A stretch of DNA of 54,655 nt from Enterobacteria phage mEp021. Under the pieces are notes generated by a model. That model had not been told where the DNA came from. It was given only the letters and a program-made list of their open reading frames with translations, and made no database searches. Below, one piece after another: positions 6,046-43,750 of this stretch (its first letter is position 1; each line of letters begins with the position of its first letter). The translations under genes and the position numbers were made by a program. The stretch lies in sequence record MH706966; one strand, 5' to 3'.

Positions 6046-6079
6046 TATGTTATTACCTCCGGTTTACAAAATGGAAAAT

Positions 6080-7703: not shown

Positions 7704-7736
7704 AATGTTACTTCCTCATGTTTACGTTTTGTATAT

Positions 7737-9224: not shown

Positions 9225-9365
9225 CGTTTCAACTCCTTAAAACGCCTCAGACACTCTACAACGCAAAAACACACCGCGTAATCCACTTGTAATGGTGCAG
9301 TGTCTTTTTTGCGCCAGAATCGCAATCAGGTGGCTAATTTTTTGATTTACAGACTGGTATGAAGG

Positions 9366-9467
9366 TTATGGATTTACTAGAAGGAACAAGCCGCCGAACA
9401 AAGCGACGTTAACAGCGATTGCAGCGGCGATGGCAAAAGCCAGGGCGAAAACGTGTTTACCGTCCAT
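9366..9467 (-). CDS. Possible 33-aa hydrophobic peptide MDGKHVFALAFAIAAAIAVNVALFGGLFLLVNP
   Basis: Not in the track. GAGAGGA sits 7 nt upstream of the ATG, and the peptide has a single predicted TM helix. It lies in an otherwise empty 375-nt gap. Confidence 0.3.
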   Translation of the reverse strand: MDGKHVFALAFAIAAAIAVNVALFGGLFLLVNP

Positions 9468-9600
9468 TTTAAAATCCTCTCTAAAACGCTCTCTAACGAG
9501 CTAAACCGCTAAAGGTATGCAAGTGTAGCACCCAATGCTTTTTAGCTCGCTTATGGGCTTGTTTTGTTGGTAATTTTTGATTTTTGCGTATTGTGGTTGG

Positions 9601-10608
9601 TCAAATAGCGCCTGCGCGTGTATCGCGTAGCGTTTTTGGTTTAAGCAGGAAATCAAGTGTCGCAGTGAAGCCATTGCCGAAGTAAAAGTCTGAAGCCGTG
9701 TTTTTAAACGCCTCAAAGTAAGCAATAAAGCCAGTGATGCTTTTGTCTTTCAGGTAGTCAGTGAACGCATAGATCTTGCGTTCAAGATCCCGATCCAGTT
9801 CAGCAGGTGGCAACAGGCCATCAAACGTGCTGTTAAATGCTTCCACTACGTCGGCAGCGTTTGCAGTGACTGACAGTTTGCTCCATTGTTCAGCATCAGC
9901 CAGATACCCATCGAATTTAGTTACCCGGCAAATGTTAACAGGCTTAGGCACTCCACCACGGCCACGCCATTGCGTTAAAGCCCACTCAATCACTAATGTG
10001 ATCTCACCCTCCGTATACGCTTTGCGTGTTTTTGTTTCTGTCAGTAGTTCTACGAATGGCTTTGCATCACGACATTTGCATCCTGCCTTGTCGTTGTAGA
10101 AGGACAGGCAACGCAATGCCGCCAGATTAACCTCCCGATCTTCTTCGCTGATAGACTCGTCTTTTTCCAATACACGAAGTGTATTGTTTTTAATGTTCTC
10201 TTTACTGGTTATATATGACTGATTAGGGTTGCTCTCTGCCACTACCCCCGGTTGCTTTGTGCCACTACCCTGGTTGCTCTCTGCCACTACCCCCGGTTGC
10301 TTTGTGCCACTACCTGACAGTGAAGGTAAAACGATTACATAGAAATTGCTCGTTTGTTCTTTCCCTCCTATTAAATATCGAGGCTGTTTTAGTAATAAAC
10401 CTTTTTTGCAAAGAGCCTCGATTGCTCTCATTGCCGTACTTTTGTTTATTTCGCATTGCTTTGCTATGTGCTGGTAAGAAGGGTAGCACTCTCCGTTATC
10501 GTTAGCGTTATCAGCCAACTTTAACAGCACAAGTTTGTGCATTGGGTTGCCGACTTCAGTATGAAAGACTTCAACCATTAGCCGCATACTCATAAGCATT
10601 AACCTCAT
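9601..10608 (-). CDS. Replication initiator, lambda O-like (N-terminal winged HTH; start codon ambiguous, 10608-10578)
   Basis: The N-terminus KLVLLKLADNANDNGECYPSYQHIAKQCEINKSTAMRAIEALCKKGLL is typical of phage O/HTH_36 initiators. The gene contains iterons (peptide repeat SGSGTKQPGVVAESN twice), as lambda O does. Confidence 0.8.
   Translation of the reverse strand: MRLMLMSMRLMVEVFHTEVGNPMHKLVLLKLADNANDNGECYPSYQHIAKQCEINKSTAMRAIEALCKKGLLLKQPRYLIGGKEQTSNFYVIVLPSLSGSGTKQPGVVAESNQGSGTKQPGVVAESNPNQSYITSKENIKNNTLRVLEKDESISEEDREVNLAALRCLSFYNDKAGCKCRDAKPFVELLTETKTRKAYTEGEITLVIEWALTQWRGRGGVPKPVNICRVTKFDGYLADAEQWSKLSVTANAADVVEAFNSTFDGLLPPAELDRDLERKIYAFTDYLKDKSITGFIAYFEAFKNTASDFYFGNGFTATLDFLLKPKTLRDTRAGAI
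10168..10316 (-). repeat. Candidate origin of replication: four 22-23-bp iterons, an AT-rich stretch and a palindrome, inside the O-like gene
   Basis: Iterons GGTTGCT(C/T)T(CT/-)GTGCCACTACCC at 10228, 10250, 10272 and 10295. AT-rich segment at 10187-10227. Perfect palindrome CAATACAC-GAA-GTGTATTG at 10168-10186. Confidence 0.7.
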
Positions 10609-10614
10609 GACGAA

Positions 10615-10860
10615 CTAAAACATTAACTGATAAACACAGAAGAAGCCTGGAAGCTGGCTAATCAGGCCGCTTCTTTTCAGTTGATGCAGTGCAGAGATAG
10701 TGTCACGTAACGAAATTTCGCACATTTCCGCGATCTCTTCCGGAGTTACTTCGCTTTTGCCGTTGCATCCGGCCTTTGTTGCCAGTGCAATTAAGATAAG
10801 TTTTTGCACATGATCATTGTTATTCAGGCGAATATCAAAAGCCTTGCGAACGTAATACAT
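10615..10860 (-). CDS. Small winged-HTH protein, first gene of the minus-strand early operon (Cro/CII position)
   Basis: 81 aa with a strong RBS (AGGAGAAAGAAACATG). KLILIALATKAGCNGKSEVTPEEIAEMCEISLRDTISALHQLKRSGLI resembles the N-terminal domain of the O-like protein. Confidence 0.6.
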   Translation of the reverse strand: MYYVRKAFDIRLNNNDHVQKLILIALATKAGCNGKSEVTPEEIAEMCEISLRDTISALHQLKRSGLISQLPGFFCVYQLMF

Positions 10861-10968
10861 GTTTCTTTCTCCTATGGTTAGAGTGAACGCGCGGGCGGGT
10901 ATCCAATTAGCATTAGATAGCAGTGACTGACCGCTGAACAGATCCCGCCGTTGCGTGATATTTGTTTT

Positions 10969-11001
10969 TCGCTTCGCAGCGACACCGGATTTTTAAAGAG
11001 C
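10969..11001 (-). promoter_or_regulatory. nutR-like site (boxA AGCTCTTTAAAAA, 7-nt spacer, boxB hairpin UCGCUGCGAAGCGA)
   Basis: Read on the minus strand in the leader of the early operon. The boxA matches the rrn boxA TGCTCTTTAACAA at 11/13. The 17-mer GCTCTTTAAAAATCCGG is identical to 20172-20188. Confidence 0.4.
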
Positions 11002-11013
11002 TTTTAAGGTATG

Positions 11014-11129
11014 TACCTTTTGTGCTTTCCCTTATCTTTTTTCTTGCATCATTGCAACTATGGCCTTACCTTGTCAGCAAGTTTACAGAATGGAGCTTTA
11101 AGATCAAGGCTTGAAAAATACGTTTTGTG
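11014..11129. promoter_or_regulatory. Immunity-region operator cluster (three copies of the YACAAAAYGK word) between divergent early promoters
   Basis: TACCTTTTGTG at 11014-11024, TACAGAATGG at 11084-11093 and TACGTTTTGTG at 11119-11129, in the 306-nt gap between the cI-like gene and the divergent operon. Confidence 0.4.
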
Positions 11130-11166
11130 ACTTGCATCAAAATTTTTTAGGTTATAGGGTAGCGAT

Positions 11167-11814
11167 ATGAAAACAAAATGGTATGACTTAGCAAAACAAC
11201 TCATGCGGGCGCAGGGCATGAGCCAGGATTCATTGGCTGATCTTATGGGGATCACAAAAGGCGGCCTTTCTCACTGGCTGAACGGTAGACGTGAGCCAAA
11301 TCTTGAAGATATTGCGCGTATCATGCGGGCGCTTGGGCGTCGGCAGTTCACTGTCACACATGATGGAATGGTCATTGATGATTCTGTTTCTAACACGTTG
11401 CCGGGAGCGCCGCCGCGTGATTTAGGTAGTTACCCGGTTGTTGACTGGAAGGATGTAGTAAACAATATGGAAGATGCAAGGCGATCAACATTACCACACG
11501 TTACGACTAGCGTTATTTGTTCAGATGATAGTTATTGGCTGGTAGCTAAAGGCGAATCAATGAACGCGCCGCAAGGATTGAGTATACCAGCGGGGACGAT
11601 GATACTTGTCGATCCGCACGCGCCAGCTATTGACGGCAAACTGGTTATAGCCCAATTGGAGGAGGGGCAGGTACCGACGTTTAAACAGTTGATTATTGAT
11701 GGAGGTCAAAGACTTTTGCGTTCGCTCAATCCGCTGTATCCGCCAATCCCTATGAATCCAGAATCAAAAATTATAGGCGTGGTGGTTGATGCGAAGATCG
11801 TAAACCTGCCATAA
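11167..11814 (+). CDS. cI: CI-type prophage repressor (XRE HTH + S24/LexA-like autopeptidase)
   Basis: 215 aa. N-terminal HTH MSQDSLADLMGITKGGLSHWLNGRR and a C-terminal S24 domain with AKGESM...K. Divergent from the early operon. Confidence 0.9.
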   Translation: MKTKWYDLAKQLMRAQGMSQDSLADLMGITKGGLSHWLNGRREPNLEDIARIMRALGRRQFTVTHDGMVIDDSVSNTLPGAPPRDLGSYPVVDWKDVVNNMEDARRSTLPHVTTSVICSDDSYWLVAKGESMNAPQGLSIPAGTMILVDPHAPAIDGKLVIAQLEEGQVPTFKQLIIDGGQRLLRSLNPLYPPIPMNPESKIIGVVVDAKIVNLP

Positions 11815-11820
11815 ACATTA

Positions 11821-11844
11821 GCCGCCGGATGGCGGCTTTTCTTT
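11821..11844 (+). terminator. Rho-independent terminator after cI
   Basis: GCCGCC-GGAT-GGCGGC followed by TTTTCTTT. Confidence 0.7.
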
Positions 11845-11924
11845 GCCGTAAAAACACCAAAACGTAAACAGAAAACATGTTTTATCATTTAAATATCAAT
11901 GAGATAGAAAATTTTTTAAAAAAG

Positions 11925-11966
11925 TATACAAAATGGATTGACTCTGTATATCACGGGGCGTATATT
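11925..11966 (+). promoter_or_regulatory. pL-like promoter (TTGACT-17-TATATT) with an abutting TATACAAAATGGA word
   Basis: -35 at 11938-11943 and -10 at 11961-11966. The motif at 11925-11937 is directly upstream. The spacer contains ATATCACG, which also occurs in the other early leader. Confidence 0.5.
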
Positions 11967-12223
11967 GCGAATCAAAGGAAGGAGGCAGGAAACAAAAAAG
12001 CACCTTCCAGGCACTTTAAAAAATCAGGCTTAACACCTTGTCAACCGTGGAGTAACTCCCCGATGGGGGACCGAAAGCGGCACTGATAACAAGGCGCATG
12101 GGGTGTTTAAAGCGTTACACCCCCCACGAAACCGCACGCAAGGCGACGAGTCAGCTTGCTTGGAGTGAGCAAGGTCACACCGGAAACGGCGATGATTGCG
12201 GGATTAGTTGAAAGATGTTAAGC

Positions 12224-12261
12224 CGCTCATTAACAATCTGGTCAGCCGCTGGAAGTGCGGC
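12224..12261 (+). promoter_or_regulatory. nutL-like site (boxA CGCTCATTAACAA, 8-nt spacer, boxB GCCGCUGGAAGUGCGGC)
   Basis: boxA matches the rrn boxA at 11/13. boxB is a 5-bp GC stem with a GGAAG loop flanked by U.U. It lies 57 nt upstream of the N-like gene. Confidence 0.5.
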
Positions 12262-12317
12262 AATTAACGAAGATGATTTTTTATTAAGTATCATCAAGGA
12301 TATAAGGAGATCAGATC

Positions 12318-12608
12318 ATGACAGTTACAATCATGTATGGCAAATGTGACAGTAAACTGAATGCCAGGGAACGCAGAAGAATAAAAAGAGAAAACGAAAG
12401 AAAATCATCACCTGCAATTAATAAAACGGACAATGTGGATAAAGCCATTCGCTTTGCAAACGAGGAAAGATGCAAACCCAATGGCATTAAAGAACGTCGC
12501 AAAGGAGCGGTAAAATGGTATACGGAAAATGAAAGCGGCAACTACTACCACGCAACGCAACCACGCCAGTTAGGGGAAAAACCCCTTGATAAAGTCCGCT
12601 ACCATTAA
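12318..12608 (+). CDS. N: N-like transcription antiterminator (arginine-rich motif protein)
   Basis: 96 aa with the RBS AAGGAG. The N-terminal ARM SKLNARERRRIKRENERK resembles the lambda, P22 and phi21 N ARMs. It is the first gene after the pL-like promoter and the nut-like site. Confidence 0.55.
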   Translation: MTVTIMYGKCDSKLNARERRRIKRENERKSSPAINKTDNVDKAIRFANEERCKPNGIKERRKGAVKWYTENESGNYYHATQPRQLGEKPLDKVRYH

Positions 12609-12638
12609 TACAAAATGTAAATAATCGGAGGTGACATT

Positions 12639-12761
12639 ATGGTTATCGAGGCGCTCAAATTCAAACTTGCGGTAGCGGAAATGCTTCATGATGCCGAAAT
12701 GTGGAGCGCCGCGAATAAAGCCTTATACGTAGTGTTAACAGCGAAGGAGATCAAAGAGTGA
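12639..12761 (+). CDS. Hypothetical small protein (40 aa)
   Basis: Not in the track. RBS GGAGGTGACATTATG. Its stop overlaps the GTG start of the erf-like gene. Confidence 0.4.
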   Translation: MVIEALKFKLAVAEMLHDAEMWSAANKALYVVLTAKEIKE

Positions 12762-13399
12762 AAACAGAGTTACACAAAAAGCTGTGGACGATTCAACAAA
12801 CGTTGAATGCGCCGAAAAATCAGCGTAATAATTTCGGTGGGTACAATTACAGGTCGGCGGAGGATATTTTAGAGGCGGTTAAGCCACTGCTTCAAAATAT
12901 CACGCTGACTGTTAGCGATGAAATCGTCCTGATCGGCAATCGCTATTATGTGAAGGCCACAGCTACGCTAAGCGACGGTGAAGATGAAATTGCGGTAACT
13001 GCTTACGCCAGGGAAGAAGAAAGCAAGAAGGGAATGGACGCAAGCCAGTTAACTGGCGCGACATCAAGTTATGCGCGGAAATACGCGTTGAACGGATTGT
13101 TCTGTATTGATGATGCGCGAGATCCTGATACTGACGCATACGCGAAGCAGACTGGCCAGCAGCCTCGCCAGCAGAAAAACACACCAAAACAACAACCACA
13201 GCAGCAGAAAGCGCCGCCAAATCCTGACGAGGTGTTAGCGCGTTTCTGTGATGCAGCAGCGAAAGCGCCTGACGCTAACAAGTTGCGCGAGATATTCGGG
13301 AAGTGCTGGAAGCTACTTCCTAAAGATTCAGAACAGCAACAGAAAGCTAAAGACGTTTATGATATTCGCTTAAAAGAGCTTAACGGGGAGATCGGTTAA
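12758..13399 (+). CDS. erf: ERF-family single-strand annealing (recombination) protein
   Basis: 213 aa. ...NFGGYNYRSAEDILEAVKPLL...SYARKYALNGLF is typical of the ERF superfamily, with a Q/P-rich linker. Confidence 0.8.
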   Translation: MKTELHKKLWTIQQTLNAPKNQRNNFGGYNYRSAEDILEAVKPLLQNITLTVSDEIVLIGNRYYVKATATLSDGEDEIAVTAYAREEESKKGMDASQLTGATSSYARKYALNGLFCIDDARDPDTDAYAKQTGQQPRQQKNTPKQQPQQQKAPPNPDEVLARFCDAAAKAPDANKLREIFGKCWKLLPKDSEQQQKAKDVYDIRLKELNGEIG

Positions 13400-13809
13400 T
13401 GAGCTTAAATTCAATTACGCTTGGCGGTAACGTTGGGAATGATTGCGAAACGAGATTTACATCAAACGGGAAAGCAATCGGTAGTTTCTCACTTGCTGTA
13501 CAACAAGGTTACGGTGATAACAAACGTGCAATGTGGGTAACGTGTTTAATATTAGGTGATAGAGCAACAAAATTAGCCGAACATATTAGGAAGGGGGATC
13601 ACCTGGTTGTAAGTGGTCGGTTGGATGTTAGGGATTGGGAAGGGCAGGACGGAAGAAAAAACAAATCAGTTGAGGTTATCGTGTCAGATATTGAATTTAT
13701 GAGCGGAAATAAACGCAGCGACCAAAACCAAAACAGACAACGCGAACAGCAACAACAATATAACCAGGATAACGGCGGGCAGGACTGCGACCAAGATATC
13801 CCATTTTAG
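13399..13809 (+). CDS. ssb: Single-stranded DNA-binding protein
   Basis: 136 aa. OB-fold N-terminus (NSITLGGNVGNDCETRFTSNGKAIGSFSLAV), a Q/N-rich tail and the terminal acidic DQDIPF motif. Confidence 0.9.
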   Translation: MSLNSITLGGNVGNDCETRFTSNGKAIGSFSLAVQQGYGDNKRAMWVTCLILGDRATKLAEHIRKGDHLVVSGRLDVRDWEGQDGRKNKSVEVIVSDIEFMSGNKRSDQNQNRQREQQQQYNQDNGGQDCDQDIPF

Positions 13810-13838
13810 CGAATATAATCAATTAGTTAGGTGTTATT

Positions 13839-14363
13839 ATGAGTAATGCCGAACCATTGAAAATATGTTGTACTTGCGGGGCACTATTGCCCCTTTCTTG
13901 TTTTCATAACGATAAGGGCAAGAAAGACGGCAAATCATGTAGATGTAAAGAGTGCGCCAAAAAAGCCACTAGAGAATGGAGTGAAGCGAATAAAGAAAGA
14001 AAAAAGAAAAATGATAGCGAATACGCAAAAACAGATAAAGCCAAAAAGAAAAGGGAAGAATACAGAAAATCGCAAAGAGGTAAAGAGATCGCGGCTGAAT
14101 CAAGAAAAAAATGGAATGAGAAAAACCCTAAAAAATACCACGCCCAAGTGATGGCACATAACGCTATCCGCGACGGCAAATTAATTAAACAACCTTGCGA
14201 AGTATGCGGCAGAGATGACCGCGTACACGCGCACCATTGCGATTATGATAAGCCGCTCGATGTTATGTGGCTTTGCCCGATATGCCATCGAGAGTGGCAC
14301 AACGAACACGGTGAAGGAGCTAATGCACACGACGAGGTATTAAGTGGTGAGCGAATATCTTAA
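13839..14363 (+). CDS. HNH nuclease-family protein with a lysine-rich middle region
   Basis: C-terminal CEVCG...VHAHHCDYDKPLDVMWLCPICHREWH (HNH/Zn) and an N-terminal Cys cluster. Confidence 0.65.
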   Translation: MSNAEPLKICCTCGALLPLSCFHNDKGKKDGKSCRCKECAKKATREWSEANKERKKKNDSEYAKTDKAKKKREEYRKSQRGKEIAAESRKKWNEKNPKKYHAQVMAHNAIRDGKLIKQPCEVCGRDDRVHAHHCDYDKPLDVMWLCPICHREWHNEHGEGANAHDEVLSGERIS

Positions 14364-14628
14364 AGCACCGCCACCGCCACCGCGAACAAAAGAACAAGTA
14401 TTAAAAGAAGCCCGTGATCATATCGATCATGGGCTTTTTTTATGCGGAACGGCGGCGGATCGAATGGCGAAAAGATTTAGTGACCTGTACGCAAAACAAA
14501 TATGGTTCGACAACTGGCAGGCAAGTTTTTACCCACTGCAAAGAAAACCGGATATGCATTGGCCTGAATATGTCGATCCACGTATGCGCAAATATCGCGG
14601 GCGTATGGGCCAGGTTATTAACGATTAA
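14344..14628 (+). CDS. Hypothetical protein (94 aa)
   Basis: ORF packed in the plus-strand early operon. Confidence 0.45.
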   Translation: MVSEYLKAPPPPPRTKEQVLKEARDHIDHGLFLCGTAADRMAKRFSDLYAKQIWFDNWQASFYPLQRKPDMHWPEYVDPRMRKYRGRMGQVIND

Positions 14629-14642
14629 TGAGGTATTAAATC

Positions 14643-14867
14643 ATGATCGAAGATAAAGAAGTTGACGTAGAAATTCCTGACAGCGCTGATGAGCTTATCA
14701 CTTTCGGCGGCGGCCTGTATGAGTTCGATACATCGGCTGGGTGGGTTGATAAGTGGCCTCAGCCTACTCGCCAGGAATTAATTAACCGCAAATCATTCGG
14801 CGAAGATGCAGAACGCCTTGCTAATAACAAGTGGCTTAACAAGTTCATTGCGGAGGGTGATAAATGA
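14643..14867 (+). CDS. Hypothetical protein (74 aa)
   Basis: ORF packed in the operon. Confidence 0.45.
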   Translation: MIEDKEVDVEIPDSADELITFGGGLYEFDTSAGWVDKWPQPTRQELINRKSFGEDAERLANNKWLNKFIAEGDK

Positions 14868-14977
14868 ACCTTGCAAAAATTGCCGCATTGCTTGCGGCTT
14901 TGTCTATCGCTGTGCTGTATCTCAGCGTATCGCTTTATATAACGGTAGCGATCATTAAACTCATTGCTAACATGTGA
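14864..14977 (+). CDS. Small single-TM peptide (37 aa)
   Basis: Not in the track. ATGA overlap with the upstream stop. MNLAKIAALLAALSIAVLYLSVSLYITVAIIKLIANM. Confidence 0.4.
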   Translation: MNLAKIAALLAALSIAVLYLSVSLYITVAIIKLIANM

Positions 14978-14985
14978 GGTTAATC

Positions 14986-15105
14986 ATGAAAGTCGGTAAG
15001 GATATTGTGACGGTCGCGTTTTGCATTATTTGCTTCCTATTTGTGGTTGTGTTTTGTGGCGGATTTGCAGCGCTGGTTAGCTTTATTTTCAGGGGATTGT
15101 TGTGA
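14986..15105 (+). CDS. Small single-TM peptide (39 aa)
   Basis: Not in the track. RBS GAGG. MKVGKDIVTVAFCIICFLFVVVFCGGFAALVSFIFRGLL. Its stop overlaps the next start. Confidence 0.4.
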   Translation: MKVGKDIVTVAFCIICFLFVVVFCGGFAALVSFIFRGLL

Positions 15106-15377
15106 TGAAAACATGGGATGCAAAGACTGGTGATCTTGTTGTATTGCCTGAATATCGTGATGACCCTGGCCTGGTTGTACTGAATAAGATGTATAACGAT
15201 CTAGATCGCCCGCTAGTGGTTAAATACCTGGACGGAACAATCATAGAACCGCGCTACTTTGATGATATTGAACTGAAGGCCCGCAACGTTCGCGTTAAGC
15301 CGTTCCGGGCTTATGTTGAGGACCACTGGCGGAAATTGTTCGCCGGACTGAATGGGATGTACGGCGTATGGCTATAA
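15105..15377 (+). CDS. Hypothetical protein (90 aa)
   Basis: ORF in the operon. TGATG coupling to the upstream peptide. Confidence 0.5.
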   Translation: MKTWDAKTGDLVVLPEYRDDPGLVVLNKMYNDLDRPLVVKYLDGTIIEPRYFDDIELKARNVRVKPFRAYVEDHWRKLFAGLNGMYGVWL

Positions 15378-15559
15378 AGGAAGTAAAGGTCAAAGACCTG
15401 AAAGGCGGTGAGCGATTAAAGGCGTGGTGGGGTCGCGAGTTTACAGCCGCTGCCTTCATGATCATGCAGGGCGGGGAGGTCGTTATATACGATGAAGACC
15501 TGAAGGAAGTCGGCAGGTGGCATCTTGAGCAATATATCGAGGTGTTAGATGAAAATTAA
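15368..15559 (+). CDS. Hypothetical protein (63 aa)
   Basis: Overlapping, coupled ORF. Confidence 0.45.
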   Translation: MAIKEVKVKDLKGGERLKAWWGREFTAAAFMIMQGGEVVIYDEDLKEVGRWHLEQYIEVLDEN

Positions 15560-15881
15560 ATTCCATAAAGGTTATGATTCGGTCACTAACAAGTTATCGC
15601 TATTTATTGAGTTCGAGCGCCGGATCGTGGTTGTTCCTTATTCTCGGCGCTTTAATGATGCGGCAGGGCGGCGGCAATTCGCGTTAGACATGTTGTTACG
15701 TGGCTGCGGCCTTATGCGCCCGCTATCTGATTTGAAACGGATGATGCCGGGATCGTTCGGTCAGATTGATGAAATAGAAATAAGCCCGGAAGAACTGAAG
15801 CGGGAGCGTGATTTATTCCTTTCAAGCGAAGGAAACCCGTTTAATTCAGAAACAGAAATGAAATGGCATCACCCACTATAA
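15549..15881 (+). CDS. Hypothetical protein (110 aa)
   Basis: Overlapping, coupled ORF. Confidence 0.45.
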   Translation: MKIKFHKGYDSVTNKLSLFIEFERRIVVVPYSRRFNDAAGRRQFALDMLLRGCGLMRPLSDLKRMMPGSFGQIDEIEISPEELKRERDLFLSSEGNPFNSETEMKWHHPL

Positions 15882-15894
15882 AAGGATAAATATC

Positions 15895-16515
15895 ATGAAC
15901 GACATTAAAACAGCTTATTCACTAGGCAGCGATGGCATGTTAATCACTCGCTACACTGAAGACGCAAGTTTTCATGAAGTGGAAACGAAGGATTATCACG
16001 AAGTATTAAAAGATATGGAAGCTGGCGCGTATGACGCAGATTTGAATCTGGCTTTACAGATTGTTGATATTATGATGGACGCGTCGATCCGCGATTATGT
16101 GTCTTTAAACGCTGAAGAAAAAACGGCTGTGGCTCGTTATGTCTTCTGCCTAACTTTCGTGAAACGAATGGAAGAGGAATATGGGCGCGTGCCAGTGCCG
16201 GAAGAAATTGACCCGCTGGCGTTCGGAAGCGCTGTTATTTTCCCGTTAGATGAAAATCATACTGGTAGCGTTGCGCTGCATTCTATGCGCGGCGTAATGA
16301 AATGCATCTTTGAGGCTAAAGCGCTACAGAAGTGCATTGATGAAGGGCATGACGAAGAAGACGTAAAAGCGATCATGCCGTTGTTTTATGGCGAAATGGT
16401 TGGGAACAACATGCGCGCAAATGATTTAGGTGTGCAGGCTGCCATAACTGTACTTAACGAAGCGCGGAAAATGTCGCAGCCAATGCCGGAACCTGAAAAA
16501 CGTGTACTGCATTAA
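15895..16515 (+). CDS. Hypothetical protein (206 aa)
   Basis: Long ORF in the operon. No motif recognised. Confidence 0.55.
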   Translation: MNDIKTAYSLGSDGMLITRYTEDASFHEVETKDYHEVLKDMEAGAYDADLNLALQIVDIMMDASIRDYVSLNAEEKTAVARYVFCLTFVKRMEEEYGRVPVPEEIDPLAFGSAVIFPLDENHTGSVALHSMRGVMKCIFEAKALQKCIDEGHDEEDVKAIMPLFYGEMVGNNMRANDLGVQAAITVLNEARKMSQPMPEPEKRVLH

Positions 16516-16525
16516 CATCGTGATT

Positions 16526-16561
16526 GCGATCACATAAATATACATTTTGTGTTGTGATCGC
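16526..16561. promoter_or_regulatory. 36-bp palindromic element GCGATCACA-N18-TGTGATCGC enclosing a TACATTTTGTG word
   Basis: Perfect 9-bp arms, each containing GATC. Lies in the 99-nt gap between 16515 and 16615. Confidence 0.4.
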
Positions 16562-16614
16562 ATATCCGTTTTGTAAACTGAAATCAAAAGGTTTACGGCA
16601 CGGAGGAAAACAAG

Positions 16615-16833
16615 ATGGCAAGCGAATTAATGCTTTATTGTGTTGAAGGTGGCGTGGGACATGATGCCTACGTCGCCGGGAAAAGCTATCCAGCAGATGA
16701 AGTGCTTTCTAATATGCACTTCCGGGAAAATGAAAACCAGGTGTCTGTGTGGAAGCGATGCGTTGATGGCATTGAGGTAGTTAGCCTCGAAAGATATTTG
16801 GGTAAATTTGACTACGCATTGATCGAGGCTTAA
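16615..16833 (+). CDS. Hypothetical protein (72 aa)
   Basis: ORF with the RBS GGAGGAAAACAAGATG. Confidence 0.5.
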   Translation: MASELMLYCVEGGVGHDAYVAGKSYPADEVLSNMHFRENENQVSVWKRCVDGIEVVSLERYLGKFDYALIEA

Positions 16834-16835
16834 CT

Positions 16836-16928
16836 ATGGACGAAACATTGCTATTCATGTGCATTTGCTGGGGTTTTATTGCCTTATGCCTGTTTATCAG
16901 GTGGTTTATTGAATACCATATGAGGTGA
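16836..16928 (+). CDS. Small single-TM peptide (30 aa)
   Basis: Not in the track. MDETLLFMCICWGFIALCLFIRWFIEYHMR. Fills the gap between two genes. Confidence 0.3.
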   Translation: MDETLLFMCICWGFIALCLFIRWFIEYHMR

Positions 16929-16931
16929 TAT

Positions 16932-17126
16932 ATGGAACAGAAAACTGATTATAGAATACCTGACAACCTGAAGTTAGTTGGCATTGGTTTTGGTTGTCGT
17001 TTTGTATCTGACGCAAACGGGGCGATTTATTTAGTGCGCATCATTGATGGCGTTCAACATATAAGAAGGCTAGGACTTTACATCAAAGCATTTAGAAGAG
17101 GTTATTTGAAAACTCATGAAATTTAA
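16932..17126 (+). CDS. Hypothetical protein (64 aa)
   Basis: ORF with the RBS GAGGTGA. Confidence 0.45.
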   Translation: MEQKTDYRIPDNLKLVGIGFGCRFVSDANGAIYLVRIIDGVQHIRRLGLYIKAFRRGYLKTHEI

Positions 17127-17319
17127 ACAGTATAAAGAATGGAAGATTCCAGAAGAAGCGACAAAGGCAGCGCCCGGAATTTTTTCGGGCGTTTATTTTT
17201 ATATGGGCGGTAAATGGTATTTCGGCAGCAGGCCGGATCACTATTATCAAGAATTATGCAAATCTCACACATGGGACATTAATGAACGCGTGCAAGGCGG
17301 TGTAATAGACGAGGTTTAA
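17116..17319 (+). CDS. Hypothetical protein (67 aa)
   Basis: Overlapping, coupled ORF. Confidence 0.45.
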   Translation: MKFKQYKEWKIPEEATKAAPGIFSGVYFYMGGKWYFGSRPDHYYQELCKSHTWDINERVQGGVIDEV

Positions 17320-17320
17320 A

Positions 17321-17557
17321 ATGATTAATGGTTTTTTAAGCTGGTTAAGAGTGTGGTTTTTTGCCACGCTTTTCGTTTTTTTGGCGTTCAGCGGTGTCAT
17401 TGTCATATTTACGCTGGCGATGATGTTCATTACATGGTCAGTACCTGAATTTAACAATCTTGGAAGTATTTTTGCTGTCGCCCGCGCCATGTTTGCTTGT
17501 AGCGCATTTGTTGGTTTTTGTTGGAGTGTTTCGCCTGATTGGGATGATGAATGGTGA
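17321..17557 (+). CDS. Membrane protein (78 aa, 2-3 TM segments)
   Basis: Hydrophobic throughout (FFATLFVFLAFSGVIVIFTLAMMFI...). Confidence 0.5.
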   Translation: MINGFLSWLRVWFFATLFVFLAFSGVIVIFTLAMMFITWSVPEFNNLGSIFAVARAMFACSAFVGFCWSVSPDWDDEW

Positions 17558-17795
17558 TCCTATGGCCTTGTTCAATATGTCAGAACTGCAATTCAACGCC
17601 GTAAAAGCTGCCGCCCGCGCTGCACTTTCTGCTTGCAAAGCGGAGGTAGAGAAAAACGGCTACAGCGATAAAGCCACGCGGCTGATATTAGAAAAGCATT
17701 ATCGCAAGGTCGCCCCACTAATCAGCATTGAGCGCTTTGTGTGGTTGGTGGGGTATTTAAACAACCGTTGGGGGACGGAACAAGATTATTTCTAA
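17544..17795 (+). CDS. Hypothetical protein (about 83 aa; start 17544, 17547 or 17562)
   Basis: The track ORF 17460-17795 was trimmed to the first in-frame ATG near the upstream stop. Confidence 0.45.
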   Translation: MMNGDPMALFNMSELQFNAVKAAARAALSACKAEVEKNGYSDKATRLILEKHYRKVAPLISIERFVWLVGYLNNRWGTEQDYF

Positions 17796-17804
17796 GGGGG
17801 CGTA

Positions 17805-18344
17805 ATGAAAAATGATTTTGGAGGCAGCCACACTCCTAAGGAAATTAAAGATCTATGGCAGACGCCTAAACCAGTTTTCAGAGGAATGGACCGCGAATTT
17901 GAATTTGTCGCTGACGTGGCGGCAAACAAGGAAAATGCGCTAGTTCCTCGGTATATAACCGAAGAAATGGACACGTTGCATTATCCGTGGGGAGCTGTGG
18001 CAATGCCTGGTGAGTATGTCTGGCTTAATCCGCCATATTCTAAACCGGGGCCATTCGTTGAGAAGGCGGCATTAGAACATCAACGAAATCACATTGGCTG
18101 TGTAATGCTGTTGCCCGCTGACATTTCTGTTAGCTGGTTTATGAACGGCGTGGATACGGCAAACGAATGCCGATTAATCACGCGCGGGCGGCTGGCGTTT
18201 ATCAATGCTGCGACTGGTAAGCCAGTAAGCGGAAACAATAAAGGGAGCTTGTTTTTGATCTGGCATCCACGGTGCAGACATGAATGTATTTTTACACACA
18301 TAACACGTAAAGAGCTATACGCAAGAGGTGCAGATAATGACTAG
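17805..18344 (+). CDS. Phage Dam-type DNA N6-adenine methyltransferase
   Basis: 179 aa. WQTPKPVF...FVADVAA...NALVPRY and the catalytic LNPPYS are characteristic of the small phage Dam family. Confidence 0.8.
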   Translation: MKNDFGGSHTPKEIKDLWQTPKPVFRGMDREFEFVADVAANKENALVPRYITEEMDTLHYPWGAVAMPGEYVWLNPPYSKPGPFVEKAALEHQRNHIGCVMLLPADISVSWFMNGVDTANECRLITRGRLAFINAATGKPVSGNNKGSLFLIWHPRCRHECIFTHITRKELYARGADND

Positions 18345-18834
18345 TGCAGCAGATTTACTACGAATCGCAGCGGAAACAATTGAGCAAAGAGGTAAACAAA
18401 ACGGCTACGACAGAAAAGAGGAAAAATCAGCGCCAAAAATAGCCACTATATACAACGCTAAGAAGGGCGCAAATTTAACCCCACTTGATGTATGGGATCT
18501 GATGATTTGTCTTAAGGAGGCGCGTTTAGAGGCTATTTTGGTTAATGGCAGCGATCCCACTGACACTTTGGTTGACCTAATCAGCTACAGCGCACTAAAA
18601 GCTGAGCAAATATTGAATGATCTGGATGAAGAGTTAAAGAAAAATCAGTTCACTGCCGCCAATATTAATGATGGAATAATAAATGACGCAGCAATAACAA
18701 GCTGTAAGGGATTGCCGCCTTCAATGCTTAAACCTCAGTGTGGCTGTATTTCAAATCGGCTTGATTTGAGTTTTGACAGATCTGAAGCTATTCGCGACAA
18801 GAGGTATGACCCAAATGAAAAAGGTGACAATTGA
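18337..18834 (+). CDS. Conserved phage protein (165 aa)
   Basis: RBS GAGGTG. The N-terminus AADLLRIAAETIEQRGKQNGY...DVWDLMICLKEARL recurs in phage early regions as I recall. Function unknown. Confidence 0.5.
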   Translation: MTSAADLLRIAAETIEQRGKQNGYDRKEEKSAPKIATIYNAKKGANLTPLDVWDLMICLKEARLEAILVNGSDPTDTLVDLISYSALKAEQILNDLDEELKKNQFTAANINDGIINDAAITSCKGLPPSMLKPQCGCISNRLDLSFDRSEAIRDKRYDPNEKGDN

Positions 18835-19318
18835 CAGGTTATTGGCCTGCGTTTATGTCGCCGTTTTCGTGATCATCAACCTAATTGTTAACCATTGCGG
18901 CCCGTGGGTGATTCCTATCACTACGGTAGCCGCTGTGTGTGTCAATATGATGATCCGCGACTTCCTGTTATATGACGGCGGTATCAAGTGGTCGGCGACA
19001 ACATGCGCCGCCGCTGGCGCAATCACTGTGCTGATAAATTACGACGCCGGAATGGTAGCGATCGCGTCATTTGTTGCGGTTGTTTCCGGTGCACTTATTT
19101 CTGGCGGCGTTTACCGGGTTTTACCTGGTGACTTTGATTCAAAACGATGGCCTGCAAATATAGCGTCAGCAATAGGCGATGCGTTGATTTTCCCTACGCT
19201 ATCGTTTATGGCATTCATGCCGGAAATATCAGCAATGCAATTCATATCCAAAATGGCGGCGGTAACGGTGATCACTATCATCATGCGCCGCTATTTTACG
19301 TTTGAGGGTAGAAAATGA
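18815..19318 (+). CDS. Polytopic inner-membrane protein, possibly VUT/YhhQ-like (7-deazapurine precursor transporter family)
   Basis: 167 aa with 4-5 TM segments. ASFVAVVSGALISGGVYRVL...KRWPANIASAIGDALIFPTLSFMAF resembles my memory of the E. coli YhhQ C-terminal half. The family assignment is weak. Confidence 0.5.
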   Translation: MKKVTIDRLLACVYVAVFVIINLIVNHCGPWVIPITTVAAVCVNMMIRDFLLYDGGIKWSATTCAAAGAITVLINYDAGMVAIASFVAVVSGALISGGVYRVLPGDFDSKRWPANIASAIGDALIFPTLSFMAFMPEISAMQFISKMAAVTVITIIMRRYFTFEGRK

Positions 19319-20073
19319 GCAGGGGTAAACATTGGTTTAATAATTGGCTTAGAAATTGGGTCGTTTGGTCGTTGTACGACGGCAGCGGGTACGCCGTCAA
19401 AGATTGGGCGGAAGCAGGATATAAGTGCTATTGCTTCAACTATGACGGCGCAAATCACGGCGATTATGAAGGCGTTAAAATCATTCATCCAAATATTGAA
19501 TACGTTAACGTATGGATTGACAGTCACTTCCTGGTGATGTTCTCGCCTGAACTGTCAGTTTACCCAGATCCTGATATTATCCTGGGCTTCCCGCCGTGCG
19601 ACGATCTCGCCGTGTCTGGCGCTCGCTGGTTCGCTGATAAACGGAAAAAAGATCCTGACTTCCAGGTGAAGGCGGCGAATAGCGCAAAACTGGTAGAAAA
19701 ACTGGCGGATATGCACAACGTGCCGTGGATGGTGGAAAATCCGGTGGGAGCACTGTCAACGCTATGGCGCAAACCTGATTTTATTTTCAACCCTTGCGCT
19801 TACGGTGGCTACCTGCCGGAAGACGACAAACATCCTGCTTTCCCTGATGTTTACCCTGCGCGCGACGCGTATACAAAGAAAACTTGCATATGGTGCGGCA
19901 ACGGATTCAAACAGCCGCTTTTTAGACCTGTAGATCTTAACTCTGGCGATAACCCTGGGTGGGCGAAAACAGGAGGCAGGACGAAACGAACAAAGATGAT
20001 ACGCTCACTAACTCCGCGCGGCTTTGCCCGTGCTGTATTCATGGCTAACCATGACCGCGTTTTACCGGACTGA
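19315..20073 (+). CDS. Compact C5-cytosine-methyltransferase-like protein
   Basis: 252 aa. Motif I-like SLYDGSGYA, motif IV-like GFPPCDDLAVSGA, motif VI-like MVENPVG and motif X-like LTPRGFARAVF. No obvious target-recognition domain. Confidence 0.6.
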   Translation: MSRGKHWFNNWLRNWVVWSLYDGSGYAVKDWAEAGYKCYCFNYDGANHGDYEGVKIIHPNIEYVNVWIDSHFLVMFSPELSVYPDPDIILGFPPCDDLAVSGARWFADKRKKDPDFQVKAANSAKLVEKLADMHNVPWMVENPVGALSTLWRKPDFIFNPCAYGGYLPEDDKHPAFPDVYPARDAYTKKTCIWCGNGFKQPLFRPVDLNSGDNPGWAKTGGRTKRTKMIRSLTPRGFARAVFMANHDRVLPD

Positions 20074-20128
20074 AATTTACAAAATGGCGTCATTGCGTGA
20101 TGTGGATCACATAATGGCGCTATTCACC

Positions 20129-20156
20129 TTGTTCTGATGTATCCATTTTGTATACT
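20129..20156 (+). promoter_or_regulatory. Candidate promoter (TTGTTC-16-TATACT) overlapping a CCATTTTGTATA word
   Basis: Read in the 159-nt gap after 20073. It would start transcription just upstream of the third nut-like site. Confidence 0.35.
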
Positions 20157-20170
20157 TCAAACAAGCAAAA

Positions 20171-20204
20171 TGCTCTTTAAAAATCCGGCAGCGCTGAAAT
20201 GCGT
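20171..20204 (+). promoter_or_regulatory. Third nut-like site (boxA TGCTCTTTAAAAA, 7-nt spacer, boxB GCGCUGAAAUGCGU)
   Basis: boxA matches the rrn boxA at 12/13. The 17-mer GCTCTTTAAAAATCCGG is identical to the nutR-like site on the other strand. boxB shares the CGCUG..AA..GCG pattern. Confidence 0.45.
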
Positions 20205-20232
20205 AGAAATCACCTGAAAAGGAGAGAGCATT

Positions 20233-20409
20233 ATGCCTTTTAATAATTACCAATGGCATGACGACTATGAACGAGAAAGCGTCATGCGTGCAATGTGCAA
20301 TGTATGCAGCACGAAGAAAGGAGACTGCAACGAGTGCAACGAATGTTTAGATCATTGGCTAAGGGCCGGACACGCCGAAAGGCTGAACGAAACAGAAAAT
20401 CAAAAATAA
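20233..20409 (+). CDS. Small Cys-rich protein (58 aa)
   Basis: Not in the track. RBS AGGAGAG. MPFNNYQWHDDYERESVMRAMCNVCSTKKGDCNECNECLDHW... Confidence 0.4.
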   Translation: MPFNNYQWHDDYERESVMRAMCNVCSTKKGDCNECNECLDHWLRAGHAERLNETENQK

Positions 20410-20423
20410 TCGGGGTGATTTTT

Positions 20424-21029
20424 ATGCAGAACCCTAAAAAACCAATACGACGCCGTTGCAAATGCTGCGGCGTTTTTTTTGAGCCTAAATATCACAATCA
20501 AACGTGGTGCAGTGATGAATGTCTGGAAGAACTGAAGTTTGACCAGCTATGCCGCGACCGAGAAAAGGCTATGAAGGCTATGGAACGGAAGAAACGCCGC
20601 GACAGCCAGCGTGAGGAACGCAACCGGAAACGTAAACAGTTAAATCCGCGCAGCTACTGGATTAAACAGGCGCAAAACGTGTTTAACGCATATATTCGCG
20701 AACGTGACGCAGGACAGCCGTGTATATCTTGCGGGACTTATTATTACGAACAATGCGGCGCTGATGCTGGACACTGGCGCACAGTAGCGGCAGCCGGACA
20801 CCTTCGCTTTAACGAGGATAACGTAAACCTACAATGCCGACATTGCAATCAGGTATTAGACGGCAATGTAGAGTTATACAGAATAAATTTAATAAAAAAA
20901 ATAGGATTAGAAAGGGTGGAGGCATTAGAAAATAATAACGAGACTCACAAATGGACGATAGAAGAATGTAAGGAAATCATAAAAGTCTATCAGGCTAAAT
21001 TGGACGCCTTAAGGAGAAAGGCGGCATGA
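20424..21029 (+). CDS. ninG: NinG/Rap-family recombination endonuclease
   Basis: Trimmed to MQNPKKPIRRRCKCCG... PRSYWIKQAQNVFNAYIRERDAGQPCISCGT...GHWRTVAAAGHLRFNEDNVNLQCRHCN matches my recollection of lambda NinG closely. Confidence 0.8.
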   Translation: MQNPKKPIRRRCKCCGVFFEPKYHNQTWCSDECLEELKFDQLCRDREKAMKAMERKKRRDSQREERNRKRKQLNPRSYWIKQAQNVFNAYIRERDAGQPCISCGTYYYEQCGADAGHWRTVAAAGHLRFNEDNVNLQCRHCNQVLDGNVELYRINLIKKIGLERVEALENNNETHKWTIEECKEIIKVYQAKLDALRRKAA

Positions 21030-21433
21030 ATGAATATTCTTTTAGCCTGCCTTACCCGCCATCGAACAATCGCTATTACCGACATTCTCGCGGTTTTCAC
21101 TATATTAGCAAAGTGGGGAAGGAATACAGGGAACAAGTAAGAGACATCATCGAGCTATTAAATTTAAACATCAACCTATCTTGCCGACTGGCAATAACTA
21201 TTCATGCCGCGCCGCCTGATAACCGGATCAGAGATCTGGATAATATCCCAAAATGCCTTTTTGATAGCCTTACTTACGCCGGATTCTGGACCGACGACGG
21301 ACAAATCGATTCTATAAAAATTGTTCGCTGCCGGAAGGTGAAAGGCGGGCGATTGTTTATTAAGGTGCGCGAGCGCGGCGACCTGTTACCGGATATTGGC
21401 GAATACGAAACTAATATATGGGGTGAGAAATGA
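21026..21433 (+). CDS. rusA: RusA-family Holliday junction resolvase
   Basis: 135 aa. LPYPPSNNRYYRH...RDLDNIPKCLFDSLTYAGFWTDDGQI. Confidence 0.85.
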   Translation: MNEYSFSLPYPPSNNRYYRHSRGFHYISKVGKEYREQVRDIIELLNLNINLSCRLAITIHAAPPDNRIRDLDNIPKCLFDSLTYAGFWTDDGQIDSIKIVRCRKVKGGRLFIKVRERGDLLPDIGEYETNIWGEK

Positions 21434-21612
21434 AAAACGAAATTAAAGATCTGCAAATAGATATTCAGCGCGACGAGCTTGATTTAGCTACAGTCAGGCA
21501 AATCCAGGCTTTCCACATGAGAGAATTGCTTGCGCTGAAAGAGCTTGAAAGAAAGTTGGTCCAGTCAATATCTGATCGCAAAAGACTGGTTGCGCGTTAC
21601 GGGGGTAAATAA
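21430..21612 (+). CDS. Hypothetical coiled-coil protein (60 aa)
   Basis: Coupled ORF between rusA and Q. Confidence 0.45.
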   Translation: MKNEIKDLQIDIQRDELDLATVRQIQAFHMRELLALKELERKLVQSISDRKRLVARYGGK

Positions 21613-22334
21613 TGAATTTGGAATCTATTCTTAAATTCCATTTCCCAAAGTCACCGCGTTTGTCAGATGAAAGCCGTGGAACATCACCTGATGCACTTAA
21701 TACTACTGATGCACTAACCGCCGCAGGTATGGCGCAATCTCGCGTAGAGCTTGGATATAGCGCTTTTTTAGGGAAGATGGAACTATCACAAGCCGAAAAA
21801 CATAAGGCCGTAGTTTTGCTTATAGAGCGTTTAAAGGCTATGGCAAAAGATTATAAATACGTTATGGAACTGGACGAGGCACAACGCAATGATCTCATTA
21901 TTCTTGTTGCCGTTTTTGCGTTTCGGGATTATTGCCAGAGTGCCGCGACGGAAAAAACTTGCATGGAGTGCGGCGGATATAAATTTACGTTTGACGAATA
22001 CGGTGAAAAACACCTTTGTAAAAAATGCAAGGGGCATGGGACAGTTCGCAATCATTGTAAACAATGCAAGGGCCGTGGCGAAGTACCGGACAAAGCAGCC
22101 AGCGAAGCGACGGAAATGCCAGTATTCAAAACGTGCCAGCATTGCGGCGGGCGCGGTTACTCGCGTTTCCCAGTAGATCTTGTTCGGCAGGCGGTTAATC
22201 AGCTTGTTTTCCCTGTAAGCCGATCAACATGGTGGAAGAAATACAGGGTTTTCTATGAAGACGCCATAGTGGAGCTATTCAAAGAAGAATCTCGCGCGGA
22301 AAGCGAAATCAAACGAGTGACACGGGGTGAATAA
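21612..22334 (+). CDS. Q: Late-gene antiterminator Q (Zn-finger type, phage 82/21-like)
   Basis: 240 aa immediately after rusA. DnaJ-like CxxCxGxG repeats (CKKCKGHG, CKQCKGRG, CQHCGGRG), as in one Q family. Confidence 0.65.
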   Translation: MNLESILKFHFPKSPRLSDESRGTSPDALNTTDALTAAGMAQSRVELGYSAFLGKMELSQAEKHKAVVLLIERLKAMAKDYKYVMELDEAQRNDLIILVAVFAFRDYCQSAATEKTCMECGGYKFTFDEYGEKHLCKKCKGHGTVRNHCKQCKGRGEVPDKAASEATEMPVFKTCQHCGGRGYSRFPVDLVRQAVNQLVFPVSRSTWWKKYRVFYEDAIVELFKEESRAESEIKRVTRGE

Positions 22335-37569: not shown

Positions 37570-37725
37570 TTTCTTATCCTCTTTGCTTCCTCCGGTTAAT
37601 CCGACCTTCTAAATCCCTTTACTCTATCCCTTTCCTTTAGCCTCTTTATACAAAATGTATTCGTTGAAGTGAAGCCATTTTGTATAAAATAGAGATCAGT
37701 ATCACACTTTTTACGAGGTTAAATC

Positions 37726-42042: not shown

Positions 42043-42071
42043 GTGAAGCCATTTTGTAAACTGGGTATAAT
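42043..42071 (+). promoter_or_regulatory. Candidate restart promoter for gpM (TATAAT at 42066-42071) overlapping GCCATTTTGTAAA
   Basis: Consensus -10 hexamer but a poor -35 (GTGAAG). The motif copy lies in the spacer. Confidence 0.3.
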
Positions 42072-43738: not shown

Positions 43739-43750
43739 TTTGTTAACCTC

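Follow-up and report, generated by a model that had tools for sequence, protein, structure and literature searches.

Does a temperate phage that carries three nut-like sites, one more than lambda, read them all with a single N-like protein, and what would the third site be for? The question is raised by the 54,655-nt sequence MH706966 (Enterobacteria phage mEp021), the whole of which was analysed and is called the window below. An earlier note on this DNA, made from the sequence alone, had pointed to three boxA/boxB sites and to a 96-aa protein with an N-terminal arginine-rich motif (ARM) as an N-type antitermination system. We find that the three sites and the arginine-rich protein are real and match the published Gp17/nutL/nutR1/nutR2 system, so that the proposal was a correct rediscovery and not a new finding.

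According to PMC11893012, the mEpimmI phages are a Nus-dependent, non-lambdoid group of coliphages with mEp021 as archetype, and Gp17 is a lambda-N-like protein of early antitermination (PMC11893012, citing Valencia-Toxqui et al. 2023, Arch Virol 168:92). The same source places the targets of Gp17 at nutL, upstream of the repressor gene gp15, at nutR1, upstream of gp17, and at nutR2, downstream of the methyltransferase gene gp32. It describes nutL and nutR2 as the most alike pair and nutR1 as the most variable site, gives Arg17, Arg19, Arg20 and Arg24 of Gp17 as invariant and Arg21 as nearly so, and reports Nus dependence and Gp17-dependent antitermination for mEp021 or its group. The remark in the earlier note that a third nut site lies outside the lambda scheme is also found there, the extra site being named as a distinguishing feature with respect to lambda (PMC11893012).

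The window shows the published gene order, arginine positions and pattern of site similarity, and its three sites map where they were reported (before the repressor gene, before gp17 and after the methyltransferase gene); in protein, sites and genome architecture we found no substantive difference from the mEp021/mEpimmI Gp17 system. Region 10500-13000 is 93-95% identical in nucleotide sequence to Escherichia phages mEp010, mEp013, mEp044, mEp515, mEp554 and MagusPhagus, the first 25 kb of the window are matched by prophages of 37 complete E. coli genomes, a synteny comparison shows the gene order to be collinear with mEp010 and E. coli prophages, and the mEp021 Rep forward primer matches at 11167. 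Of 11 published phage-side primers for mEp021, 3 have an exact match in the window; B1 and B2, two more that were tried, anneal in bacterial flanks and should have no match in phage DNA. We put at about 0.9 the probability that the window is a temperate coliphage genome of the mEpimmI group (mEp021-like) and that the sites and the 96-aa protein are the early antitermination system of this group. The antitermination activity, the use of the three sites and the Nus dependence would then carry over from the literature on the orthologous mEp021 system.

The three nut sites and their variation

The elements of the three sites are as follows.

12224-12236, plus strand: boxA of nutR1, CGCTCATTAACAA, followed by an 8-nt spacer, TCTGGTCA
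12245-12261, plus strand: boxB of nutR1, GCCGCUGGAAGUGCGGC, drawn as GCCGC-UGGAAGU-GCGGC; whole site 12224..12261
11002-10990, minus strand: boxA of nutL, AGCTCTTTAAAAA, followed by a 7-nt spacer, TCCGGTG
10982-10969, minus strand: boxB of nutL, UCGCUGCGAAGCGA, drawn as UCGCU-GCGA-AGCGA; whole site 10969..11002
20171-20183, plus strand: boxA of nutR2, TGCTCTTTAAAAA, followed by a 7-nt spacer, TCCGGCA
20191-20204, plus strand: boxB of nutR2, GCGCUGAAAUGCGU, drawn as GCGC-UGAAAU-GCGU; whole site 20171..20204

All three are present as the earlier note had described them, nutL ending at 11002, one base past the 11001 given there. Each runs from boxA to boxB along the direction of its operon, the minus-strand site included, and has within about 8 nt of boxA a short G+C hairpin of the GNRA type. 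As also noted before, an exact 17-mer, GCTCTTTAAAAATCCGG, is shared by two sites: it occurs exactly twice, at 10985-11001 (minus strand) and 20172-20188 (plus strand), and with up to 3 mismatches its sole further match is nutR1 (0.19 expected). The composite GCTCWTTAAMAA-N8-10-CGCTG has exactly three matches in the window, with 0.00 expected and none in 100 shuffles. BoxA alone is not significant (5 matches in the window at up to 2 mismatches compared with 1.95 expected), meaning that the significance of the sites comes from the composite motif and not from boxA by itself. Folded as isolated hairpins, the boxB elements form as proposed, with -8.6 kcal/mol (z -2.6) for nutR1, -5.7 kcal/mol (z -2.7) for nutL and -4.5 kcal/mol (z -2.4) for nutR2; in a 61-nt context the hairpin fold is unexceptional, as expected for elements so short. 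A covariance model built from boxA, spacer and boxB scored nutL at 58.2, nutR2 at 56.4 and nutR1 at 52.1 bits, and indicated no fourth nut site in the window, the next match being at 9 bits. The classical arrangement of exactly two nut sites, one per divergent early operon, is thus replaced here by three. Rfam returned no family for the whole window at gathering thresholds, and for region 10900-12400 at E <=1 only two chance-level sRNA matches, around the repressor terminator.

The relatives used for comparison, about 45 related genomes, include 42 IMG/VR contigs retrieved by a search with the Gp17 alignment. The sites are kept at the same relative positions in 41 (nutL), 43 (nutR1) and 42 (nutR2) loci. 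The earlier note had named beforehand the conservation of the boxA-spacer-hairpin layout in homologous phages as a point on which its proposal could fall, and in these 41-43 loci the layout holds. The 12-nt boxA GCTCTTTAAAAA is invariant in nutL and nutR2 across the relatives. The 5 nt that follow it read TCCGG, CCCGG, TCTGG, CCAGG, CTAGG or CCTGG and change independently at nutL and nutR2; since this extension varies freely, constraint is confined to boxA, and the match over all 17 nt is a chance agreement in this genome. These observations bear on a different explanation of the shared 17-mer, as an element acting in the DNA, such as a target for a binding protein or a pair of inverted copies through which 10985 and 20188 could recombine, and not as an RNA signal. 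An exact identity over 17 nt, inverted and 9.2 kb apart, is what such an element would offer. However, in the relatives only the 12-nt boxA part is invariant and the full identity is peculiar to this genome, the divergence of the two operons by itself accounts for the opposite strands, and all relatives share one gene order from site to site, with no sign of inversion. We consider this explanation the least probable of those weighed here, and barely credible.

The hairpins vary as well. In nutL the loop GCGA becomes GUGA or GCAA in relatives, a GNRA sequence every time, and the outer pair of nutR2 is G.U, A-U or C-G. The nutR1 stem GCCGC/GCGGC is replaced by GCUAC/GUAGC or UGCAC/GUGCA, changes that are fully compensatory; they occur in a clade whose Gp17 is about 72% identical, and the loop there is UGAAAU, as in nutR2. 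Eleven distinct hairpins can be aligned in register as N-Y-R-C-U-[G-N-R-A]-(G)-W-G-Y-R-N, with GCGA, GUGA or GCAA, GAAA, and GGAA plus one base as loops, all of them GNRA on a common C-U-GNRA core. Changes on both sides are seen in 4 of the 6 stem pairs, and the covariation score of 0.43, against 0.14 in shuffles (none of 500 reaching 0.43) and at most 0.12 with slid partners, comes from a test that pools three paralogous sites with only 11 distinct hairpins and is therefore supportive, not rigorous. Judged from these comparisons, the pattern of variation is that of an RNA signal.

The alignment also removes a difficulty. The three boxB loops had been thought unusually different for sites read by one N protein. 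In register they all read C-U-[GNRA]-(U/A)-G, and with this shared core the worry over three different loops disappears; lambda's own two boxB loops also differ (GAAGA and GAAAA). In the boxB of lambda and P22 the loop has five nucleotides, one of which is extruded so that the others take up the GNRA fold. Here, nutL carries GCGA on a U-A pair, and in nutR2 a U stands on either side of GAAA; five loop bases, GGAAG, are confined to nutR1 of the main clade and can alternatively be drawn as GGAA with a U.G closing pair and a bulged U. 

The boxA sequences raise a second alternative, namely that the sites are rrn-type boxA antiterminators served by host factors only (NusB/E/A/G, SuhB), the hairpins and the 96-aa protein being incidental. 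The earlier note's statement that the boxA elements are close to that of rrn is accurate: they are nearly identical to the E. coli rrn consensus TGCTCTTTAACAA, matching it at 12 of 13 positions in nutR2 and at 13 of 13 in nutR1 of one relative (L043), and the lambda boxA, CGCTCTTA, is less close. In rrn leaders the order is boxB-boxA-boxC. The order of the elements is reversed here, boxA preceding boxB as in phage nut sites; the hairpins are conserved with compensatory stem changes and loop changes that preserve GNRA; and a phage ARM protein of the N family is encoded beside nutR1 in every genome compared. Gp17-dependent antitermination, reported for mEp021 (PMC11893012), also argues against a role of host factors alone, and we regard the rrn-type explanation as very improbable.

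An IMG/VR search for the tetraloop-type nut composite outside the group matched 97 stretches, nearly all on contigs of the group; the 17 non-group stretches amounted to 15 distinct site sequences. The three most nut-like of them (L079, L107 and L135) were rejected, since each falls within a coding region of an unrelated phage and has no N-like gene in its neighbourhood, and the remaining ones had no convincing hairpin, judged by site sequence alone.

The N-like protein and its relatives

The protein is encoded immediately after nutR1.

12318..12608, plus strand: Gp17 orthologue, 96-aa N-like antiterminator; Shine-Dalgarno AAGGAG; product starting with MTVTIMYGKCDSKLNARERRRIKRENERK

The earlier description of the 96-aa product as N-like with an N-terminal ARM is supported by its family membership and by the published arginine positions. 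It belongs to phrog_271 ('anti-termination protein N-like'), which Gp17 matches over its full length (E 1.1e-10) and which also contains P22 gp24 (E 6.9e-40) and lambda N (E 4.1e-23), so that the comparison with known N families ended in a profile match shared with both proteins. The ARM corresponds to residues 15-29, NARERRRIKRENERK, and is conserved in an alignment of 14 diverse homologues; R17, R19, R20, R21 and R24 are all present at the positions published for Gp17. At the C-terminus, KWY.ENESGNY.HATQPR.LGE.PLDKVRYH is invariant. Identity is 100% to the protein of mEp515/mEp044 and 92-100% to those of group members; most records annotate the ORF as hypothetical. In a 106-aa homologue from E. 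coli (P0034) the central region, which is the part similar to P22 gp24, has a tandem duplication of 10 residues (VEKAIRFANE, present twice).

Several points weigh against the assignment to an N/nut system, besides the pooling of paralogous sites in the covariation test mentioned above. Gp17 has no Pfam match, and in pairwise and profile comparisons it resembles lambda N and P22 gp24 weakly (E 0.003-0.02). A tblastn search with Gp17 over 50,697 phage records retrieved six group members only and did not reach P22 or lambda. Moreover, lambda and P22 have 5-nt loops and the loops here are 4-nt GNRA (or GGAA plus one base), so that recognition may differ in its details. In other searches, no relatives of Gp17 were found among one genome per species in GTDB, and a PDB sequence search gave chance matches only, the N-peptide entries not being retrieved.

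Where, then, does the system stand among known ones? When the nut model from the window was applied to the 8-kb immunity region of P22, the annotated P22 nutR and nutL were its two best matches (E 0.004 and 0.017). The same model misses the lambda sites, with a weak boxA match only. As the P22 sites are picked out and the lambda sites are not, we consider the system a divergent member of the N/nut family, nearest to that of P22. The likeness extends to the protein: gp24, like Gp17, has an N-terminal extension before the ARM (MTVITYGK...NAKTRRHERRRK), and both are in phrog_271. Local matches include MTVTIMYGK..NARERR of Gp17 with MTVITYGK..NAKTRR of P22, and DNVDKAIRFA with DRVTKAISLA, which have the motif D.V.KAI..A in common; RRKGAVKWY of Gp17 also matches ERKNQRTWY in the C-terminal part of lambda N, as (R/K)(K/N)...WY. 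The nut layout of P22 is shared (CGCTCTTTA(A/C)C, then 7-8 nt, then a hairpin topped by CGCUG or CCGCCG), and P22 nutR, CGCTCTTTACCAATCTGAACCGCCGACAACGCGGT, resembles nutR1, CGCTCATTAACAATCTGGTCAGCCGCTGGAAGTGCGGC.

The differences from P22 are equally clear. P22 has two sites, both with the pentaloop GACAA, whereas here there are three, with 4-nt GNRA loops (GCGA, GAAA) or GGAAG. Gene 24 is first in the PL operon of P22 and the replication genes are rightward, whereas here the N-like gene is rightward with erf and ssb, and replication is leftward. The identity of gp24 to Gp17 is local only (E 0.008). The pairing of a GACAA loop with a gp24-like ARM that marks the P22 subgroup is thus not found: the loops differ, and the ARM and N-terminal extension are similar, not the same. 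With lambda, the system shares an N-terminal ARM, early promoters that are each followed by a boxA and then a boxB hairpin whose loop is of the GNRA type, an N gene that directly follows a nut site, terminators ahead of Q in an N-to-Q cascade, membership of both proteins in phrog_271 and, as reported for the mEpimmI group (PMC11893012), Nus dependence. Lambda differs by its two sites, its boxA and its 5-nt loops GAAGA/GAAAA on a GCCCU/AGGGC stem.

Promoters, terminators and the role of the third site

The elements that would bring transcripts to the three sites, and those that would stop them, are listed below.

11938..11966, plus strand: PR1, early rightward promoter for nutR1 and gp17; -35 TTGACT, 17 nt, -10 TATATT
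11080..11107, minus strand: candidate PL, early leftward promoter for nutL; -35 TTGATC (TTGACC in relatives), 16 nt, -10 TAAACT
11077-11048, minus strand: alternative PL candidate, CTGACA-18-AATGAT
20129..20156, plus strand: candidate promoter directly upstream of nutR2; -35 TTGTTC, 16 nt, -10 TATACT
13878-13893, 14882-14898, 17169-17193 (11 bp) and 17347-17373 (11 bp), plus strand: terminator-like hairpins of the rightward operon between gp17 and nutR2 (terminator scan)
20454..20480, plus strand: intrinsic-terminator-like hairpin with an 8-T run, inside the 5' end of ninG, about 250 nt past nutR2

As a predicted promoter PR1 is well supported: it matches the consensus at 10 of 12 positions, and across 45 sequences its two hexamers are conserved and the spacer between them changes. 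The boxA of nutR1 starts at about +252 from it. PL remains a candidate, proposed from the sequence, the promoter scan and the pattern of conservation. The hairpins between gp17 and nutR2 have a counterpart in mEp010, where ARNold predicts terminators T4-T6 in the corresponding interval, and the 20454-20480 hairpin has as its homologue T7, a further predicted terminator of that phage (2733-nt offset). This last hairpin also overlaps the ninG codons for CKCCGVFF, the DNA there being both coding and, as predicted, a regulatory terminator. Among these candidates for terminators overridden in this phage, the one at 20454-20480 is the likely barrier to Q expression.

The system could operate as follows. 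Gp17, whose gene comes just after nutR1 in the way that lambda N comes after nutL, would be made from the rightward early promoter at 11938-11966. Its N-terminal arginine-rich helix would bind the boxB hairpin of the nascent RNA, recognising the common form of a C-U-[GNRA] top on a G+C stem of 4-5 bp. The rrn-like boxA would recruit host NusB/NusE and, with NusA and NusG joining, a termination-resistant RNA polymerase complex would result. The leftward replication operon would be modified through nutL, the rightward gp17-erf-ssb operon through nutR1, and the ninG-rusA-Q segment through nutR2, the terminator 250 nt downstream otherwise limiting Q expression. By analogy with the N-to-Q cascade of lambda, ninG-rusA-Q would depend on read-through past nutR2, and Q thus on Gp17.

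The earlier note had placed the third site amid plus-strand genes, just before ninG-rusA-Q and behind its own promoter. The first part is accurate, as genes for NinG, RusA and a Q-type antiterminator lie downstream of nutR2. The promoter is plausible, being supported by a conservation pattern, yet unproven. Its predicted start is about 8 nt before boxA. In 43 sequences upstream of nutR2, a TTGT block and GTATCCATTTTGTATACT are conserved, with 6 hypervariable nucleotides between them; in the scan with its threshold of 9 of 12 consensus positions, the candidate fell below and was not listed. That nutR2 is served by a promoter of its own seems to us, from the sequence, about an even chance. If so, nutR2 may belong to a third early operon and not be an internal reloading site.

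The identity of nutR2 as a nut site is undisputed in the contrary explanation, which concerns the reason for the third site only: nutR2 would be an internal reloading or booster site for transcripts begun 8 kb upstream at the gp17 promoter, the promoter-like sequence before it being unused. No terminator is predicted from the methyltransferase stop (20073) to nutR2, so read-through transcripts would reach the site, and several strong terminators (17169, 17347) separate nutR1 from nutR2 and could make a second loading useful. The failure of the candidate promoter in the 9-of-12 scan points the same way, as does its comparison with the PL region, 24 of 41 positions, which is not above chance; an origin of the nutR2 promoter region as a paralogue of the PL region was in fact rejected, the ungapped 24/41 lying within the null (mean best 23.9) and only a short core motif being shared. 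On the other side, the conservation is promoter-like across 43 genomes: TTGT as -35, 6 hypervariable nucleotides and an invariant GTATCCATTTTGTATACT containing the TATACT -10, at fixed spacing. In addition, a 17-mer of the candidate nutR2 promoter, AAGTATACAAAATGGAT, also abuts the -35 of the gp17 promoter, in inverted orientation, and its core overlaps the -10 of candidate PL. Lambda N complexes persist across many kilobases, and reloading is not obviously needed. We regard the reloading explanation as possible and rather doubtful.

Instead of one odd extra site in a two-operon scheme, we tentatively propose three repressible early promoters, each with its own nut site (at about +70 from PL, about +250 from PR1 and +8 from a so far undescribed PR2) and all marked by the motif GT(A/T)TACA(A/G)AATGG, with Gp17 reading genuine 4-nt GNRA tetraloops; this fuller scheme is, in our estimate, somewhat short of an even chance. 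Neither a third early promoter nor the GNRA-tetraloop reading was found in the accessible literature, the 2023 primary paper (Arch Virol 168:92) aside.

Recurring motif, leader and genome setting

The motif just named was observed through the 9-mer ACAAAATGG, which occurs 11 times in the window with 0.8 expected. The extended 15-mer KTWTACAAAATGGMW occurs 20 times at up to 2 mismatches (2.7 expected); these sites include 6062-6076, 11081-11095, 11924-11938, 20075-20089 and 20141-20155(-), and further ones lie at 37646-37687, 42047-42061(-), 43733-43970(-), 52945-52989 and elsewhere. About 13 of the 20 are intergenic, a manual estimate from ORF coordinates and not a computed statistic. In 25 related loci five copies in the early region hold their positions: one before the helicase gene, one in the PL region, one that abuts the PR1 -35 on its 5' side, and an inverted pair on the two flanks of the candidate nutR2 promoter. 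Each of the three candidate early promoters has a copy beside or across it. The motif could be an operator, or a promoter-class or promoter-associated element, and some copies elsewhere may be start-codon contexts. A reading of ACAAAATGG as a -35 element with the hexamer TTTACA was rejected, as inspection showed no consistent -10 at 16-18 nt downstream. Operators of the mEpimmI group are not described in PMC11893012.

Candidate operators are of two kinds, the GTATACAAAATGG sites and the CTTGC-N6-GCAAG palindrome at 11043-11058. The latter belongs to the divergent region of PL and the repressor promoter, which also holds CTTG-N4-CAAG and a related half-site, ACTTGCATCAA (further positions 11070-11081 and 11128-11141); relatives change the central bases only. 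By their sequence these palindromes could instead be the operators of the repressor.

Between PR1 and nutR1, the leader of 250 nt includes a self-contained structured domain (about 200 nt; 12027-12224, plus strand) whose two ends pair through a 13-nt inverted repeat stopping exactly at boxA. For the whole leader (11973-12223) the free energy is -81.8 kcal/mol (z = -3.1), and three compensatory pairs of the divergent clade fall in one hairpin. Most group members have the domain; it is cleanly absent from eight sequences (L004, L005, L007, L009-L011, L014 and L043), and it has no match in Rfam.

The genes around the three sites are the following.

11167..11814, plus strand: CI-like repressor (Rep, gp15 orthologue), HTH_3 and Peptidase_S24 domains, phrog_4
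11820-11837, plus strand: intrinsic terminator after the repressor gene (terminator scan)
10615-10860, minus strand: 81-aa HTH protein, first gene of the leftward operon downstream of nutL (ORF, profile and domain scans)
9601-10608, minus strand: O-like replication initiator, leftward operon (ORF, profile and domain scans)
4630-6045, minus strand: DnaB-like helicase gene, further along the leftward operon
19315..20073, plus strand: DNA methyltransferase (gp32 equivalent), directly upstream of nutR2, phrog_757, E 8e-87; 'DNA cytosine methyltransferase' in RefSeq prophage annotation
20424-21029, plus strand: ninG, PF05766 (the ninG/rusA/Q set matches phrog_171, phrog_34 and phrog_127)
21026-21433, plus strand: rusA, PF05866
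21612-22334, plus strand: Q-like late antiterminator, PF03589; a 60-aa ORF lies between rusA and this gene

The early operons are reversed with respect to lambda, 4630-10860 being on the minus and 12318-22334 on the plus strand: the leftward operon behind nutL holds the replication genes (O-like initiator, DnaB-like helicase), and the rightward one the N-like gene, erf, ssb, the methyltransferase gene, ninG, rusA and Q. The repressor gene is co-oriented with the rightward genes and insulated by its own terminator (11820-11837). It has no recognisable Shine-Dalgarno sequence, and a TATAGG -10-like hexamer ends about 10 nt 5' of its ATG (11148-11169); the maintenance transcript may be leaderless, like that of lambda cI from PRM. 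Between nutR2 and ninG, a 58-aa Cys-rich ORF (20233-20409, plus strand; full-length match to phrog_30170, E 2e-43) is the first gene past the candidate nutR2 promoter, and it is swapped for another short ORF in the clade with a CCGC/GCGG nutR2 stem (L009-L011, L043-L045).

The experimental case had already been made for mEp021, and its conservation had already been shown across 48 genomes. The practical value of the analysis lies in annotation: the 96-aa ORF is an N-like antiterminator, three nut sites accompany it, and a terminator probably lies inside the 5' end of ninG. The details that may be new are the GNRA tetraloop consensus, the affinity to P22, the structured leader and, above all, a possible third early promoter and the recurring promoter-associated motif. 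N/nut antitermination is the textbook case of a small RNA-binding protein that reprograms RNA polymerase. With three nut sites, an rrn-like boxA and a tetraloop boxB, the mEpimmI phages are a useful comparative case within it, which bears on the recognition of GNRA folds by ARM peptides and on the number of loading sites that an antiterminator needs.

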